DNA from: Candidatus Binatia bacterium
Lineage (GTDB): Bacteria > Desulfobacterota > Binatia > Bin18
Direction of reading: 5' to 3'
Length of the DNA stretch: 64,000 nt
NCBI GenBank assembly: GCA_963664395.2
Contig: OY761159.2
Span: forward strand, 3,296,001-3,360,000
Shown here: piece by piece, positions 2 through 5,631 of the stretch
Numbering within the stretch: the stretch's first letter is position 1
Layout: every line of letters starts with the position of its first letter
Made by a program: the position numbers and the translations under genes
Notes under the pieces: model-generated
What the model was told of the DNA's origin: nothing
The model's database searches: none
The model's input: only the letters and a program-made list of their open reading frames with translations

Positions 2-1165
2 GTGGCCGATTTCTTCTGTGGCTCCGGCACCACAGCGGCGGTGGCGGAAAAGCTGGGCCGCAAGTGGATTTGTGCAGACCTGGGCAAGTTCGCCATACAC
101 ACTACCCGCAAACGCATGATCGGCGTACAGCGGCAACTCAAGGCCGACAGCCAGAACTACCGCGCCTTTGAAATCCTCAACCTCGGCAAATACGAACGGC
201 AGCATTTTGTCGGCCTCAACCCCAATCTGCGCGAAGAAGAGCAGCAAAAGCAGTTGCAGGAAAAAGAGGCGGCCTTTCTTGATTTGCTCCTCAACGCCTA
301 TCGGGCGGAGAAGGTAGAAAACTTTACCGCCTTCCACGGCAAAAAGGCCGGACGACTCGTGGCGGTGGGGCCGGTGAATTTACCTGTTACGCGGCTGTTT
401 GTGGAAGAGATTATTCTGGAGTGTCGCAAGAACCATATCACCAAGGTGGACATTCTCGGCTTTGAGTTCGAGATGGGTCTCTTCCCCAACGTGCTGGACG
501 AAGCCCGGAGCAAGGGAATAGATATCGCGCCTAAATACATCCCCGCCGAGGTCTTCGACAAACGGGCAGTAGAGCGCAATCAAGTGGTGTTTCACGACGT
601 GTCGTTCATTGAAGTCAAACCTCATATAATAGCCGGTAGAAAAGGACGGCCTGCGACGGTGGCAGTGGAGCTGACCGATTTTTCGGTATTCTACTCCCAG
701 GACTCTATCGCCCAAGCGGAAGAAGCGTTGGGTAAAAAACAGTTGGGCAGCAAGGTCGTGGTCGAAGCTGGCCAGATTGTGAAATTGATCAAAGACAAAC
801 AGGGCGTATTCCGGCGCGAGCGACTGACAAACCACTGGACGGACTGGATAGACTACTGGTCGGTGGATTTCGATTTCGAGAGTAAGCGCGAACTCATCCG
901 CGTCAAGAAAGAGCTTTCTCCCGAAGAGCAGTCTGCTTTCGAGGGCATGGGCGACGCACAGCAAAAGCTGATGGGATGGGAAGAGCAGTGGACGGGCGAC
1001 TATATCTTTGAGAACGAGTGGCAGAGCTTCCGCACCAAAAAAGACCGCAGCCTGGATTTGAAGAGTGTCGCCCACGAATGCCCGCCGGGCCGCCATAAGA
1101 TAGCCGTGAAGGTGGTGGATATCTTCGGCAATGACACCATGACGATTGTGGAGGTGGGGGTATGA
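2..1165 (+). CDS. mod: Type III R-M DNA methyltransferase (Mod), C-terminal part; 5' end lies outside the window
   Basis: SAM-binding motif I DFFCGSGTT followed by AEKLGRKWI; C-terminal KVVDIFGNDT; a Res-type helicase lies downstream. Confidence 0.9.
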   Translation: MADFFCGSGTTAAVAEKLGRKWICADLGKFAIHTTRKRMIGVQRQLKADSQNYRAFEILNLGKYERQHFVGLNPNLREEEQQKQLQEKEAAFLDLLLNAYRAEKVENFTAFHGKKAGRLVAVGPVNLPVTRLFVEEIILECRKNHITKVDILGFEFEMGLFPNVLDEARSKGIDIAPKYIPAEVFDKRAVERNQVVFHDVSFIEVKPHIIAGRKGRPATVAVELTDFSVFYSQDSIAQAEEALGKKQLGSKVVVEAGQIVKLIKDKQGVFRRERLTNHWTDWIDYWSVDFDFESKRELIRVKKELSPEEQSAFEGMGDAQQKLMGWEEQWTGDYIFENEWQSFRTKKDRSLDLKSVAHECPPGRHKIAVKVVDIFGNDTMTIVEVGV

Positions 1166-2034
1166 GATTCGCCCTGCCGTCAATCCGGCACGACTCGAAA
1201 GGGTTTGCAGCGCTAGCGAACCTTCATGCGCAAACCGAGCACTGTTTTGTCGATGATATCGAGATCGACATGCAGTCAACGAACTGGTTCGACGCCGATA
1301 TGTGCGCAGCGTTTGGCGCGATTCTGTACGGGCTAGGAGACAATCTGAATACCATCAGTTTGACGAATATCAGCTCCGGAGTGGAGGATATTCTTTCTAA
1401 AAACGGATTCCTCAGCCACTATGGACGACAGAAAATGCCCGACCGTTGGGGAACGACAATCGCGTACCAACGCTTCGACATTGAGGACGACCGCTATTTC
1501 TCCGGCTATATTGAGCAGGAGTTCATCCATCGTCCCGAAATGCCAGAAATGTCCCCAGGATTATTAAAAAAGTTCCGTGAGAGCGTTTTCGAGATATTCA
1601 GCAACGCCGTGCTACACTCTCACACTGCATTGGGAATTTTCAGTTGCGGACAGTTTTTCCCCGCTAGGAACCGACTCGATTTTACTGTGGCCGACCTAGG
1701 AATCGGTATCCGAAAGAATGTCTGCGACAATCTCCAGCAAGAGCTGTCCCCTGTGGACGCCATCATCTGGGCGACTCAGGAGCACAATACGACCAAACGC
1801 GGGAAAGTTCCCGGCGGACTTGGCCTGACTCTACTGAGCGAGTTTATCCACCTGAATGGCGGCCGTATTCAAATAGTGTCTGACGCCGGCTACTGGTTGC
1901 AAAGAAAGGGCGGAACCCATGCGGTCTCGTTGGCCGAGCCGTTTCCGGGCACAGTAGTCAACGTAGAAATCAATACCGCAGATCGAAGCTTTTACAGCCT
2001 TCCCCCAGAACTCGAAGACGACGAAATTTTCTAA
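1162..2034 (+). CDS. GHKL (HATPase_c) ATP-binding protein, anti-sigma/Ser-kinase-like, with N-terminal STAS-like region
   Basis: N-box EIFSNAVLHS, G1 ADLGIGI, G2 GGLGL, G3 PGTVVNVEI; no His-kinase H-box or TM helices; ATGA overlap with the mod stop. Confidence 0.8.
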   Translation: MRFALPSIRHDSKGFAALANLHAQTEHCFVDDIEIDMQSTNWFDADMCAAFGAILYGLGDNLNTISLTNISSGVEDILSKNGFLSHYGRQKMPDRWGTTIAYQRFDIEDDRYFSGYIEQEFIHRPEMPEMSPGLLKKFRESVFEIFSNAVLHSHTALGIFSCGQFFPARNRLDFTVADLGIGIRKNVCDNLQQELSPVDAIIWATQEHNTTKRGKVPGGLGLTLLSEFIHLNGGRIQIVSDAGYWLQRKGGTHAVSLAEPFPGTVVNVEINTADRSFYSLPPELEDDEIF

Positions 2035-2044
2035 GGCGCCTCCC

Positions 2045-2410
2045 ATGAAGAAAGACGTTCCCATATCCGTATTCGAAGTCGTTGGCAGCCCTTTATGTGT
2101 CGCGTCGGGCGATGGGCAGAAAGTATACGACCGCATCGCCGCCGTACTGAAACAGGACCGGCGTGTCTTAATCTCGTTCCGTAATGTGTCCACGCTGACA
2201 TCGGCATTTCTCAACACGGCGATCGGTCAACTATATGGCACATTCAACGAAGATCAGATTCGCGCTTTGCTAACGGTGGAAGACATGGAAGCCGATGATA
2301 TTGCACTGTTAAGGCGGGTTGTTAATACAGCCAAACGATACTTTCAAGACCCGGAGAGATTCAACAACGTGGTGCGAGAGGTGCTGGAGGATGACGGCGA
2401 TGACGCATGA
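2045..2410 (+). CDS. Stand-alone STAS-like (DUF4325-type) protein
   Basis: 121 aa; GQKVY...VLISFRNVSTLTSAFLNTAIGQLY pattern typical of DUF4325/STAS-like proteins. Confidence 0.8.
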   Translation: MKKDVPISVFEVVGSPLCVASGDGQKVYDRIAAVLKQDRRVLISFRNVSTLTSAFLNTAIGQLYGTFNEDQIRALLTVEDMEADDIALLRRVVNTAKRYFQDPERFNNVVREVLEDDGDDA

Positions 2411-2933
2411 CGTTTCACATGTCGAGAGTTACGACTTCACGTCTGAGGATAAATTATTTCTGGATACCAATATCTGGCTGTTCATCTACGGCCCACAGGA
2501 CCCCGCCAGCACCAAAATGTATACATACTCCTCGGCATTTCATCACATCCTGAAAGCGCAGAGCCGCATCTATATCGATGCCCTTGTCATTTCGGAATTT
2601 ATTAACGCCTACGCTCGGCAGCAATGGCACCTTGTTGCGCCCGACACGAAGTTCAAGGAGTTCCGCAACAGCCCACACTTCAAGCCAGTCGCTCAAGAAA
2701 TAGCCGACAATACCAAGCGAGTGCTGAACCACTGTTCGCGGCTCGAGAGCCGCTTTGAGACGTTGGACGTAGATGGCTTGATGAACGAATATGCAGAAGG
2801 CGGCGCTGACTTTAATGACCAGGTTATCAGGGAGCTGTGTAACAGCAGAAGCTTGAAGCTGGTCACAGATGACGGCGATTTCAGTGGACAAGGGATATCT
2901 ATAATAACGGCGAACAGGCGCTTATTGGGCTGA
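2400..2933 (+). CDS. PIN-domain ribonuclease
   Basis: Acidic PIN motifs LFLDTNIW, ISEF, DFND, LVTDDGDF; start moved to ATG 2400 (GGAGG at 2386-2390), overlapping the STAS gene end. Confidence 0.85.
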   Translation: MTHDVSHVESYDFTSEDKLFLDTNIWLFIYGPQDPASTKMYTYSSAFHHILKAQSRIYIDALVISEFINAYARQQWHLVAPDTKFKEFRNSPHFKPVAQEIADNTKRVLNHCSRLESRFETLDVDGLMNEYAEGGADFNDQVIRELCNSRSLKLVTDDGDFSGQGISIITANRRLLG

Positions 2934-2937
2934 TTCC

Positions 2938-5631
2938 ATGGCGCTGCATATCGACTTCCCCAACTCCCCCCACGCGATTCTTGACCCAGAGTTTCGCTGG
3001 TTTCCTGCGGATGAGGCACTGCGTCATACCAGCACGGAAAAGCTGATGCCACCACTTGTGGCGCAGCTGCGACGTAAGGTTAAGGAATTCCGCGACAGCG
3101 GCTATGTGGGCGCCAGCGATACCAGCAAGAGCCTGCTCAATTGGTGGTTTGTGGAACCGCATTTGTTGCCGAAAGCAGACGGCAGTATGGAGAAATTTGA
3201 ATATTTCTTCGCCCAGCGGGAAGCGCTGGAAACCATTATTTATCTGTACGACGTGAGAGGCGCGAAGGACAAATACGATCTGATGCGTTTTGACGCCAGC
3301 GGCGTGGTCTCCAGCGGCATGTTCGATGAGAGCTGGCGACGGTATGTGATCAAGATGGCCACCGGCAGCGGCAAGACCAAGGTACTGAGTTTGGCTTTGG
3401 CGTGGAGTTTTTATCATAAGCTGTATGAAACGGCCTCCGAACTGTCACGCAATTTTCTGGTGATCGCCCCGAACATTATTGTGCTGGACCGACTCTACAG
3501 GGATTTCCAGGGGTTGCGTATCTTCTTCGAGGACCCGGTCATTCCCGACAACGGCTACGATGGGCGCAACTGGCGGGACGATTTTCAACTGACGCTACAT
3601 CTTCAGGACGAGGTACGGGTATCCCGCCCAACGGGCAATATATTCCTGACCAATATCCACCGCGTCTATTCGGGGGAAGACATTCCACCCTCGCCCGATG
3701 ACGAAGACACCAGAGAATATTTTCTGGGCAAACGGCCCACCGGCGCGACCACGGATTCCAAGTTGGACCTCGGCGACATCGTGCGTGACATTGACGAACT
3801 CATGGTACTGAACGACGAGGCGCATCATATTCACGACAACAAGTTGGCGTGGTTCAAGTCAATTGAAGACATTCACAATCGCCTTGTACAAAAAGGTGGG
3901 GCGTTGAGTTTGCAGGTGGATGTGACGGCAACGCCAAGGCACAACGACGGGGCAATTTTCGTGCAGACGGTGGCCGACTATCCGCTGGTGGAGGCGATTT
4001 CGCAGAATGTGGTGAAGCATCCGGTCCTGCCGGATGCCGCAAGCCGGGCGAAACTATCCGAGCAGCAGAGTGCGAAATTTACCGAGAAGTATGCCGACTA
4101 CCTTGACCTCGGCGTCATTGAATGGCGCAAGGCGTATCAAGAACACAGCAAGTTGGGCAAAAAGGCGATTCTGTTCGTGATGACGGACGACACCCGTAAC
4201 TGCGATGAGGTGGCCGCGTATCTGGAGAACCGCTACCCGGACCTGAAAGATGCGGTGCTGACCATTCACACCAAGAACAACGGCGAGATTTACGAAGCGT
4301 CTTCGAGCAAGCAAAAGGAAGAGTTGGAGCAGTTACGCAAGCAGGCAAACGAGATTGATACGGCAACCAGCCCCTACAGAGCCATTGTGTCCGTGATTAT
4401 GCTGAAAGAAGGCTGGGATGTGCGCAATGTGACAACGATTGTGGGACTACGAGCGTACTCGGCCAAGAGCAATATCTTGCCCGAGCAGACCCTTGGCCGG
4501 GGCTTGCGCAAGATGTATCCGGGAGACACCGAGGAATATGTCAGCGTGGTCGGCACCGATGCCTTTATGGAGTTCGTTGAATCGATTCAGTCTGAAGGTG
4601 TTGAACTTGAACGTAAGGCTATGGGCGAAGGCTCCGGGCCGAAAACTCCGCTGGTGGTAGAAGTCGATAACGACAATACGAATAAGAATATCGATGCCCT
4701 GGATATCGAGATTCCGATACTGACGCCGCGAGCCTATCGGGAATACGGGAATCTGGCCGCTCTGGACTCCACGGTAAGGCCATTCACGCCGGTTGCCTAT
4801 CAGCAATTCAGCCAGGAAGAGCAACGCGAGATCGTATTCAAGGATATTACCACTGGGGAAGTGACCCATACCACGGTGCTGGACAGTGCAGGGATTGCCG
4901 ACTATCGAAGTGTCATCGGCTATTTTGCTCAAACCGTGATGAAAGAGCTGCGGCTGGTAAGCGGCTACGATGTGCTCTACGGCAAAGTGAAAGGCTTTGT
5001 GCGGGACGCCCTGTTCGGCCAAACAGTAGACCTGGAGTCGCCGAACACACTGCGCAATCTGTCGGAGTTGGCCGCCACCAAGACGGTGATTGAGTGCTTC
5101 AAGCGGGCGGTGAATGATCTGACAGTGCAGGATAAAGGCGACGCCCGGATACGGGACACGATCAAGCTGCGTCAAACCCGGCCCTTTGTGGTGAAGGATC
5201 AAGCCTATCTCATACCGAGCAAGAGCGTGTTCAATCGCGTTATCGGTGACAGCCAGTTTGAGTTGACATTTGCCGGTTTTCTGGAGCAGTGCGGTGACGT
5301 GATTGCCTACACTAAAAACTATCTGGCTGTGAACTTCAAACTGGATTATGTGAGCGCCAGTGGAGACATCTCGAATTATTACCCGGACTTCATTGTGAAG
5401 TTGTCGAACGGGCAGATTGTCATTGTGGAAACCAAGGGACAGGAAGACCTGGATGTACCACCGAAAATGAAACGGCTACGGCAATGGTGCGAAGACGTCA
5501 ACAGAGTACAGACGAAAACGGAATATGCGTTTGTTTTTGTGGATGATGTGGGGTTTGCAAAGTACGACCCAAAGACCTTTGACGTATTATTGGCTGGCTT
5601 TCAAGATTATCAATCAGACGCAGCAGAGTGA
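2938..5631 (+). CDS. res: Type III restriction enzyme Res subunit (SF2 helicase + PD-(D/E)xK nuclease)
   Basis: KMATGSGKT, NDEAHH, TATP, MLKEGWDV, EQTLGRGLR; C-terminal YYPDFIV...VETKG. Confidence 0.9.
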   Translation: MALHIDFPNSPHAILDPEFRWFPADEALRHTSTEKLMPPLVAQLRRKVKEFRDSGYVGASDTSKSLLNWWFVEPHLLPKADGSMEKFEYFFAQREALETIIYLYDVRGAKDKYDLMRFDASGVVSSGMFDESWRRYVIKMATGSGKTKVLSLALAWSFYHKLYETASELSRNFLVIAPNIIVLDRLYRDFQGLRIFFEDPVIPDNGYDGRNWRDDFQLTLHLQDEVRVSRPTGNIFLTNIHRVYSGEDIPPSPDDEDTREYFLGKRPTGATTDSKLDLGDIVRDIDELMVLNDEAHHIHDNKLAWFKSIEDIHNRLVQKGGALSLQVDVTATPRHNDGAIFVQTVADYPLVEAISQNVVKHPVLPDAASRAKLSEQQSAKFTEKYADYLDLGVIEWRKAYQEHSKLGKKAILFVMTDDTRNCDEVAAYLENRYPDLKDAVLTIHTKNNGEIYEASSSKQKEELEQLRKQANEIDTATSPYRAIVSVIMLKEGWDVRNVTTIVGLRAYSAKSNILPEQTLGRGLRKMYPGDTEEYVSVVGTDAFMEFVESIQSEGVELERKAMGEGSGPKTPLVVEVDNDNTNKNIDALDIEIPILTPRAYREYGNLAALDSTVRPFTPVAYQQFSQEEQREIVFKDITTGEVTHTTVLDSAGIADYRSVIGYFAQTVMKELRLVSGYDVLYGKVKGFVRDALFGQTVDLESPNTLRNLSELAATKTVIECFKRAVNDLTVQDKGDARIRDTIKLRQTRPFVVKDQAYLIPSKSVFNRVIGDSQFELTFAGFLEQCGDVIAYTKNYLAVNFKLDYVSASGDISNYYPDFIVKLSNGQIVIVETKGQEDLDVPPKMKRLRQWCEDVNRVQTKTEYAFVFVDDVGFAKYDPKTFDVLLAGFQDYQSDAAE

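Follow-up and report, generated by a model that had tools for sequence, protein, structure and literature searches.

A probable vapKSC toxin–antitoxin operon flanked by mod and res within a type III-like restriction–modification operon in Candidatus Binatia bacterium

A stretch of 64,000 nucleotides (nt) from Candidatus Binatia bacterium (GTDB lineage Bacteria; Desulfobacterota; Binatia; Bin18; assembly GCA_963664395.2, contig OY761159.2, positions 3,296,001 to 3,360,000 of the forward strand), hereafter called the window, opens with five co-directional genes that were confirmed as tightly packed (window 2..5631). The three inner genes (1162..2933) very probably represent a vapKSC operon, a kinase-controlled toxin–antitoxin phage-defence system first described in 2026 (PMC13373217), inserted into a type III-like restriction–modification (R-M) operon, with mod on one side and res on the other. 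The five genes, with lengths in amino acids (aa), are as follows.

2..1165, + strand: mod, 3′ part, type III-like beta-class DNA methyltransferase (Pfam N6_N4_Mtase; PADLOC MTase_III, 5.5e-45)
1162..2034, + strand: vapK (gene 1), 290 aa, predicted STAS domain at about residues 1-90 plus SpoIIAB-like GHKL domain at about residues 97-275 (AlphaFold model, VIA-align)
2045..2410, + strand: vapS (gene 2), putative STAS-like DUF4325 antitoxin with a C-terminal helix, 121 aa (PF14213, 5.9e-16; match to 9z7o_A)
2391..2933, + strand: vapC (gene 3), putative PIN-domain toxin, 180 aa (PF01850, 9.3e-7; match to 9z7o_C)
2938..5631, + strand: res, type III-like restriction subunit, helicase plus C-terminal nuclease, 897 aa (ResIII, REase_III)

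The initial annotation of this DNA had described mod and res as separated by three co-directional, packed genes, and the junctions agree with it throughout: the start codon of vapK at 1162 and the stop codon of mod ending at 1165 share ATGA, vapK and vapS are spaced by 10 nt, the STAS and PIN genes overlap, and 4 nt lie between the end of vapC at 2933 and the start of res at 2938. The longest open reading frame of gene 3 opens at TTG 2319, and ATG 2391 gives the 180-aa product with a 20-nt overlap with vapS. The latter is likely the true start, because the STAS/PIN overlaps of relatives are 20 nt (26/78 loci) or 11 nt (21/78), together 47/78, among the 78 loci where all three genes were called; over the same loci, the gap between vapK and vapS is 10 nt in 33. 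Mod through res appear to be transcribed as one transcript, a reading based on the ATGA overlap with mod, the 4 nt to res and a lone promoter-like site before mod, which is the sole sigma-70-like site in L082:13300-18000 (coordinates that reach upstream of the window) and sits about 60 nt ahead of the mod start.

The VapS and VapC profiles each matched one entry of the Protein Data Bank (PDB), 9z7o, and this match led to the work on VapKSC (Chambers, Rani, Min, Villa, Corbett, EMBO J 2026, PMC13373217; preprint 10.64898/2026.02.02.703251, February 2026). VapS matched chain 9z7o_A, 'Escherichia VapS', as a single sequence with E 1.1e-15 across residues 7-117, and as a 30-sequence profile with E 3.1e-21 across residues 4-118. 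Its Ser53 sits in the motif LTSAF, position 53 being S in 80/81 sequences and T in the remaining one, and the preceding T52 is invariant (81/81). S53 aligns with residue 66 of the 9z7o chain, which exceeds the 116-aa native protein by 18 residues, and therefore S53 of the window VapS corresponds to the published native S48. Ser53 is thus the predicted phosphosite, and the earlier view of gene 2 as a STAS-like protein with Ser53 near the position where STAS proteins are phosphorylated holds (DUF4325, 5.9e-16). No DNA-binding domain was found in VapS by Pfam; its 121 aa comprise the STAS domain plus the helix, with no winged helix-turn-helix (wHTH) of the CapS type.

The 30-sequence profile of VapC matched 9z7o_C, 'Escherichia VapC', over nearly the full length (E 7.8e-13), and D25 aligns with 9z7o residue 28, the published catalytic D28. 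D25 and E69 were each kept in 78/79 sequences, and D140, D143 and D161 in 79/79, in accordance with the acidic PIN motifs already recognized for gene 3 (PF01850, 9.3e-7). The VapC model, with a predicted local distance difference test (pLDDT) score of 91.6, had VapC/PAE2754 folds as its best Foldseek matches, including the VapC proteins of Shigella and M. tuberculosis.

For VapK, Pfam HATPase_c gave E 3.9e-5 and 24.5 bits, and the AlphaFold model (pLDDT 77) contained two domains. Residues 1-90 resembled STAS domains in VIA-align comparisons (SulP STAS 3mgl_A, Z 10.4; RsbV 6m36_B, Z 8.9; SpoIIAA 1tid_B, Z 8.2), and residues 97-275 had SpoIIAB 1l0o_A as the best match (Z 10.2, 134 aligned residues, root-mean-square deviation 3.4, 22% identity), with the catalytic domains of histidine kinases scoring below SpoIIAB; whole-model Foldseek searches returned generic GHKL matches alone, at E ~1e-4. 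As modelled, the architecture of VapK is an N-terminal STAS domain plus an anti-sigma-type GHKL kinase. The initial annotation had seen the GHKL boxes correctly and missed the STAS domain, about 90 residues long, at the N-terminus. Since the hhalign comparison of this domain with VapS profiles gave no significant link (E 0.17, probability 0.35%), its STAS assignment is a fold match only.

N148 of VapK is invariant in 81/81 close relatives and 118/118 diverse sequences, and D178, G180 and the GGLGL stretch 218-222 were each kept in 81/81 close relatives, so that the predicted kinase active site (N-box Asn, G1 and G2 boxes) is intact. The canonical STAS phosphosite of the N-terminal domain is an alanine, A45 (80/81 close, 97/118 diverse), and therefore this domain would not itself be a substrate. 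W42 is aromatic in 108/118 diverse homologues (W 82, F 22, Y 4), compatible with a W/F position, and is the likely candidate for the conserved aromatic residue proposed in the paper to stack on single-stranded DNA (F54 of Escherichia VapK, W68 of CapK). VapK is widely distributed: 1393 relatives were found at E<=1e-3 in a word-indexed collection, the best 120 of which are all 289-295 aa long and 66-94% identical, and 1856 representatives of 50%-identity clusters matched at E<=1e-3, with 336 at E<=1e-30, mostly of about 290 aa. One cluster representative, P0121 (568 aa), contains two VapK-like stretches and could be either two copies fused in tandem or a gene call that merged two genes.

The flanking genes could be assigned with their full lengths. 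The full mod gene begins 1148 nt ahead of the window, at L082:13853, and encodes 770 aa; full-length Mod contains DPPF and FCGSG motifs and matched N6_N4_Mtase (1e-41). Res matched Pfam ResIII (5.9e-15), RE_endonuc (0.003) and PADLOC REase_III (5.9e-21), with the superfamily-2 helicase motifs GSGKT and DEAH in the translation. Judged by these motifs and domains, Mod and Res are type III-like, and the position of the cassette inside a type III mod–res operon, claimed at the outset, is upheld by the MTase_III and REase_III flanks. Against NCBIfam BPTD_3080, Res scored 6.5e-78 and 262.7 bits versus a cut-off of 800, across residues 446-871 only, which would make it a relative, not a member, of that restriction endonuclease equivalog. 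The PADLOC check suggested in the initial annotation likewise returned both flanks (MTase_III, 5.5e-45; REase_III, 5.9e-21). PADLOC-DB v2.0.0 held no model matching VapS (gene 2) or VapC (gene 3), and VapK gave a weak DrmA match (3.6e-5), so PADLOC would not flag vapKSC.

According to the published work, VapK consists of a STAS domain plus a SpoIIAB-like GHKL kinase, VapS is a STAS antitoxin and VapC a PIN toxin; the authors counted 289 vapKSC operons, and for 36% a PADLOC hit lay no more than 10 kb away (PMC13373217). Escherichia VapC is toxic and its D28A mutant is not. VapS alone neutralises VapC, and neutralisation is abolished by C-terminal truncation or by S48E, a phosphomimic with which VapS–VapC binding is lost (PMC13373217). 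In the crystal structure 9z7o, the proteins form a VapS2VapC2 tetramer whose interface buries S48, and AlphaFold 3 puts S48 at the VapK active site and single-stranded DNA (ssDNA) between both VapK domains. The Escherichia operon gave about 2-log (~100-fold) protection against phage Bas42, which was lost in the VapC D28A, VapS S48A and VapK F54A mutants (PMC13373217). Phosphorylation and ssDNA activation were shown solely for the related CapK/CapS pair, because VapK could not be purified (PMC13373217).

The assignment of the window operon to vapKSC follows from the matches of VapS and VapC to the 9z7o chains, the agreeing architecture of VapK, the retained K-S-C order, the conservation of phosphosite and catalytic residues, and the listing of close relatives' organisms in Dataset EV3. 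What was shown for the window locus is the order of the genes, the folds of the domains, the homology with the 9z7o complex and the conservation of phosphosite and catalytic residues. The VapK proteins of Nitrosomonas nitrosa Nm90 (L039) and Zetaproteobacteria CG_4_9_14_3_um_filter_49_83 (L068) are 67% and 64% identical to that of the window, and both organisms appear among the VapKSC operons of Dataset EV3, matched by organism name, not gene identifier. Because the system already has a name, its core structure is solved and its phenotype was tested in a relative, the locus should be annotated as vapKSC, not as a new system; the novelty that had been considered possible for it is thereby refuted by the earlier publication (PMC13373217).

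Several points weigh against this reading. The identity of the window proteins to the tested Escherichia proteins is low, the VapKSC activities are known from the Escherichia homologue and the window set from genes alone. The single-sequence match of VapC to 9z7o_C reached merely E 6.8e-6, and the HATPase_c score of VapK, 24.5 bits, lies just below the gathering score of 26.4. The published F54 could not be mapped with certainty, the PDB as searched holding no VapK or CapK chain, and the activation of VapK by ssDNA rests in the paper on an AlphaFold 3 prediction plus one mutant (PMC13373217). The promoter scan is also weak, with one sigma-70-like site observed versus 4.2 expected from shuffles.

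Among species-representative genomes, gene 1 was confirmed at 167 places, and the best 80 of these form the locus set used here. The K-S-C order was kept in 78/80 loci, whereas L080 ends at a contig end 33 nt after vapS and L052 has vapS-vapC before vapK; the neighbourhood survey suggested in the initial annotation thus found a conserved trio, and this arrangement is far beyond chance. As judged by record names, the 80 loci span Binatia, Acidobacteriota, Nitrospirota, Thermodesulfobacteriota, Beta-, Gamma- and Zetaproteobacteria and Chloroflexota, and also include Poribacteria, Planctomycetota, Sumerlaeota, Latescibacterota, Nitrospinota and Armatimonadota. The R-M context, judged with full-length Mod and Res queries, was assessable upstream in 66/80 loci and downstream in 64/80. 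Upstream of vapKSC, mod was full in 21 loci, present as a piece of 35-234 residues in 14 and absent in 31, so that a mod or mod piece of the same type III-like family lies directly upstream in 35/66 assessable loci, about half. Downstream, res was full in 17 loci, located upstream of mod instead in 5, reduced to a piece in 7 and absent in 35. The cassette lies between full mod and full res in 13/80 loci, and in 5 further loci it follows a full mod whose res sits upstream of mod; neither gene was present in 22 loci with both sides assessable. These fractions are biased upwards, because the 80 loci are the closest relatives of an embedded cassette. Where res is full downstream, it starts 1-7 nt past vapC in 11/17 loci.

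On the VapK tree, the R-M state is clustered, yet at least 8 changes are needed. Within the four-member VapK clade of the window, the cassettes of the window and L003 are embedded, and those of L001 and L002 are intact with mod and res fragments around them. An intact vapKSC between a mod piece and a res remnant made up of its first 37-102 codons was observed in L001 (9822-12056), L002, L005, L021 and L074; the mod piece comprises the last 58-70 codons in L001, L002 and L005, 136 residues in L021 and 203 residues in L074, and the res piece of L001 is also frameshifted. In these five loci the R-M genes decay while vapKSC is retained. NTGA at the VapK start in loci without mod was considered as a lost mod stop and rejected, as it follows from the Met-Lys/Arg start of VapK.

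Other vapKSC loci adjoin type I, type IIG and other type III R-M genes, Hhe/PDC-S37, PDC-S05 and Schlafen-like genes, and many adjoin plain housekeeping genes, e.g. those for PGI, GlyRS, RecO, LpxC, sigma-70 and FtsH. A PD-T4-4-like pair (PADLOC PDC-M47A, 3.6e-214; PDC-M47B, 5.8e-59) directly follows vapKSC in 8/80 loci (L013, and at +1 to +3 L022, L026, L027, L036, L041, L066 and L069), and in L013 (11815-13814) it is located between vapC and res; PDC-M19A/B follows vapKSC in L033. A Poribacteria-type order was also seen, with res, a small DUF4231/SLATT two-transmembrane protein, mod and then vapKSC (L026:7289-7747; also L022, L041 and L066).

By homology to the Escherichia proteins, VapS of the window would bind VapC through its STAS domain, with the C-terminal helix reaching towards the PIN active site, and so keep the RNase off. 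VapK would phosphorylate VapS at Ser53, located in the predicted VapS–VapC interface; the phosphorylated VapS would then dissociate, and the freed VapC could cleave RNA and stop the growth of the infected cell. Toxicity, antitoxin action, phosphorylation and phage protection would in this way be carried over by analogy to a distant member of the family. The signal that switches VapK on may be ssDNA from DNA damage or phage infection, as the paper proposes, and the restriction enzyme's own DNA cutting might help to trigger it. The STAS domain of VapK together with its GHKL domain is proposed to bind ssDNA (PMC13373217), and the proposed trigger is therefore DNA damage, not R-M enzyme inhibition; the latter, part of the initial annotation, differs from this proposal. 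Otherwise that annotation was largely right, as its suggestion that an anti-sigma-type kinase and a STAS protein control a toxic PIN RNase until infection holds by homology with VapKSC. The cassette is not a true partner switch: in the published system the STAS protein is itself the antitoxin on the PIN toxin and serine phosphorylation releases the toxin.

In a classical partner switch, the kinase would sequester the PIN protein as SpoIIAB holds sigma-F, and the unphosphorylated STAS protein would free it. The best structural match of the GHKL domain is indeed SpoIIAB in a sigma-F complex (1l0o_A, Z 10.2) and VapS carries the canonical serine, but in the Escherichia crystal structure VapS, not the kinase, lies on VapC, and VapS alone neutralises VapC while the S48E phosphomimic fails to bind (PMC13373217). 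There is also no sigma factor, and only three genes lie between mod and res, so no phosphatase gene is present there; we regard this arrangement as very improbable. It is likewise hard to credit at all that, instead of working via the PIN toxin, the cassette controls the R-M enzyme around it, for instance through phosphorylation of Mod or Res or through an effect on how they are translated. The translational coupling to mod, the close packing with res and the control of neighbouring immune operons by the related CapK/CapS pair (PMC13373217) would fit such a role. However, VapS does not have the wHTH DNA-binding domain of CapS, 22/80 loci with both sides assessable are without any trace of mod or res of the window's R-M family, and in L086, L087 and L097 the same R-M family has mod abutting res.

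The cassette might instead be mainly an addiction (post-segregational killing) module that stabilises itself and the R-M operon, not an infection-triggered defence. It is a toxin–antitoxin unit, its nearest relatives L001 and L002 keep vapKSC intact with the R-M genes down to pieces, mod is reduced to a piece in 14/66 and res in 7/64 assessable loci, and the VapK tree requires at least 8 shifts in R-M context. Nevertheless, the ~100-fold protection conferred by the Escherichia operon depends on VapC D28, VapS S48 and VapK F54 (PMC13373217), and we consider addiction an unlikely main role, though the two roles are compatible with each other. The reading retained here is a vapKSC defence operon, very probably with VapS as the antitoxin that VapK would release from VapC.

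The junction between mod and res could be compared beyond vapKSC. A Res homologue at E<=1e-50 occurred in 34/401 genomes of the window's phylum (own genome counted), and junction contents were surveyed among the closer Res homologues of this phylum. Mod directly abuts res in L086, L087, L097, L100, L101 and L112 (res being broken in the last), so that mod–res pairs without the cassette, which the initial annotation had proposed to look for, were found. The own genome and L093, of the same genus, carry vapKSC at this junction. The other contents are as follows.

L088:689-1517 and L090:4196-4880: MNT-HepT pair between mod and res
L084:616-1495: Zeta-toxin/AAA_33-like protein between mod and res
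L085:634-1494: Bro-N/PDC-S13 between mod and res
L092:684-1501: KilA-N/PDC-S22 between mod and res
L094:30-1394 and L096:53-1378: HATPase_c_4 protein directly upstream of res, with no mod within the flanking 1.5 kb

Short extra copies in L033 (3798-6035), L008 (7313-7611), L010 (11787-12085) and L090 (4880-5217), res heads of about 52 codons and mod pieces or tails of about 45 codons situated between cassettes, resemble recombination scars left when cassettes were exchanged or stacked in tandem. These observations raise the tentative possibility, which we rate as somewhat doubtful, that the embedding is functional, the mod–res junction being a dedicated cassette-exchange slot and, with vapKSC in it, part of a two-layer defence unit. 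The junction would then swap vapKSC, MNT-HepT, a Zeta-toxin-like kinase, Bro-N/PDC-S13, KilA-N/PDC-S22, PD-T4-4-like pairs and PDC-M19, by recombination in the conserved mod tail and res head, which would be left as scars beside solitary cassettes. As two layers, Res would cut incoming DNA and end processing could yield ssDNA, which may activate VapK and free VapC when restriction alone fails against a phage.

The surroundings of the five-gene unit are metabolic, with luciferase-like monooxygenases and amidohydrolases upstream and Rieske and LigB dioxygenases downstream, and the unit is a small island amid these genes. A DDE transposase fragment of 180 aa (L082:6829-7371; DDE_Tnp_1, 6.7e-17), about 6.5 kb upstream of mod, is the sole mobility gene seen near the island. 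The gene 1 homologue is a single copy in the source genome. Neither direct or inverted repeats bounding the cassette, nor Rfam families at gathering score or tRNAs, were found in the window.

Compared with the published VapKSC, the window cassette shares the kinase-STAS-PIN gene order, a STAS-GHKL VapK, a VapS with a short C-terminal helix and conserved serine, and a PIN-domain VapC whose acidic residues are conserved, with sequence matches to the two 9z7o chains; it differs in that its proteins are distant from the tested Escherichia ones and its operon is wedged between mod and res. The CapK/CapS pair is alike in that a STAS-GHKL kinase phosphorylates the conserved serine of a STAS protein, and for CapK activation by ssDNA was shown in vitro (PMC13373217). 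CapK/CapS often adjoins R-M systems (88/443; PMC13373217). In contrast to the window proteins, CapK has an extra N-terminal helix-turn-helix (HTH) domain and CapS is a transcriptional repressor with a wHTH; the pair has no toxin and is located upstream of its immune operon, whereas the window cassette lies inside.

With SpoIIAB/SpoIIAA and RsbW/RsbV, the window cassette shares the kinase-domain fold, the fold of its two STAS domains and the serine opening the second helix. It differs from them in having no sigma factor or PP2C phosphatase, in its output, which would be a nuclease held by the STAS protein, and in a kinase fused to a second STAS domain with alanine at the phosphosite. Pfam found no sigma or PP2C domain in the three genes between mod and res, and the flanks are metabolic. 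The statement of the initial annotation that neither a sigma factor nor a classical VapB is present agrees with the domain searches of these three genes. As in VapBC, a VapC-type PIN toxin would be held by a protein antitoxin encoded just upstream, but the antitoxin here is a STAS protein instead of a DNA-binding VapB and release would occur by phosphorylation instead of proteolysis; unlike VapBC, VapS leaves the active-site Mg2+ undisplaced (PMC13373217). PrrC in EcoprrI resembles the cassette as a toxic nuclease module nested co-directionally between R-M genes, but it is an ABC-ATPase anticodon nuclease triggered by R-M enzyme inhibition, unrelated to the window cassette in family and trigger.

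The embedding of defence genes has been published for Hma, BREX, DISARM and type I R-M (Payne et al. 2024 preprint, 10.1101/2024.01.29.577857), and the accessible part of that survey covers these systems, not type III; the accessible part of a 2025 R-M review mentions embedding for PrrC and BrxU only. In the text of the VapKSC paper, 'type III' occurs 0 times and R-M is mentioned for capKS only (PMC13373217), and 'RM_type_III' occurs 0 times in Dataset EV3, two archived supplements being outside that search. For N. nitrosa Nm90, the available Dataset EV3 gives just 'PDC-S01' near vapKSC, whereas tblastn of L039 (8871-14662) revealed a full-length mod (80% identity across the 387 residues present in the window) and a full-length res (79%) around vapKSC; PADLOC-based neighbourhood tables seem to miss the split type III-like system. 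A search of the literature on VapKSC and on type III embedding found nothing further, and the position of vapKSC inside a type III R-M operon seems unreported in the accessible parts of these sources.

Beyond what the accessible part of the paper describes, our results point to a large and very well conserved branch of vapKSC in uncultured environmental phyla, with about 60-80% VapK identity across at least 10 phylum-level groups according to record names. The type III-like embedding with a variable mod–res slot provides a modest new context for vapKSC, and the presence of other toxin and defence cassettes at this junction extends 'guilt by embedding' to type III-like systems. If it is true that restriction supplies the ssDNA for VapK, the locus in Candidatus Binatia bacterium would be a compact natural case of the wiring between first- and second-line defence.

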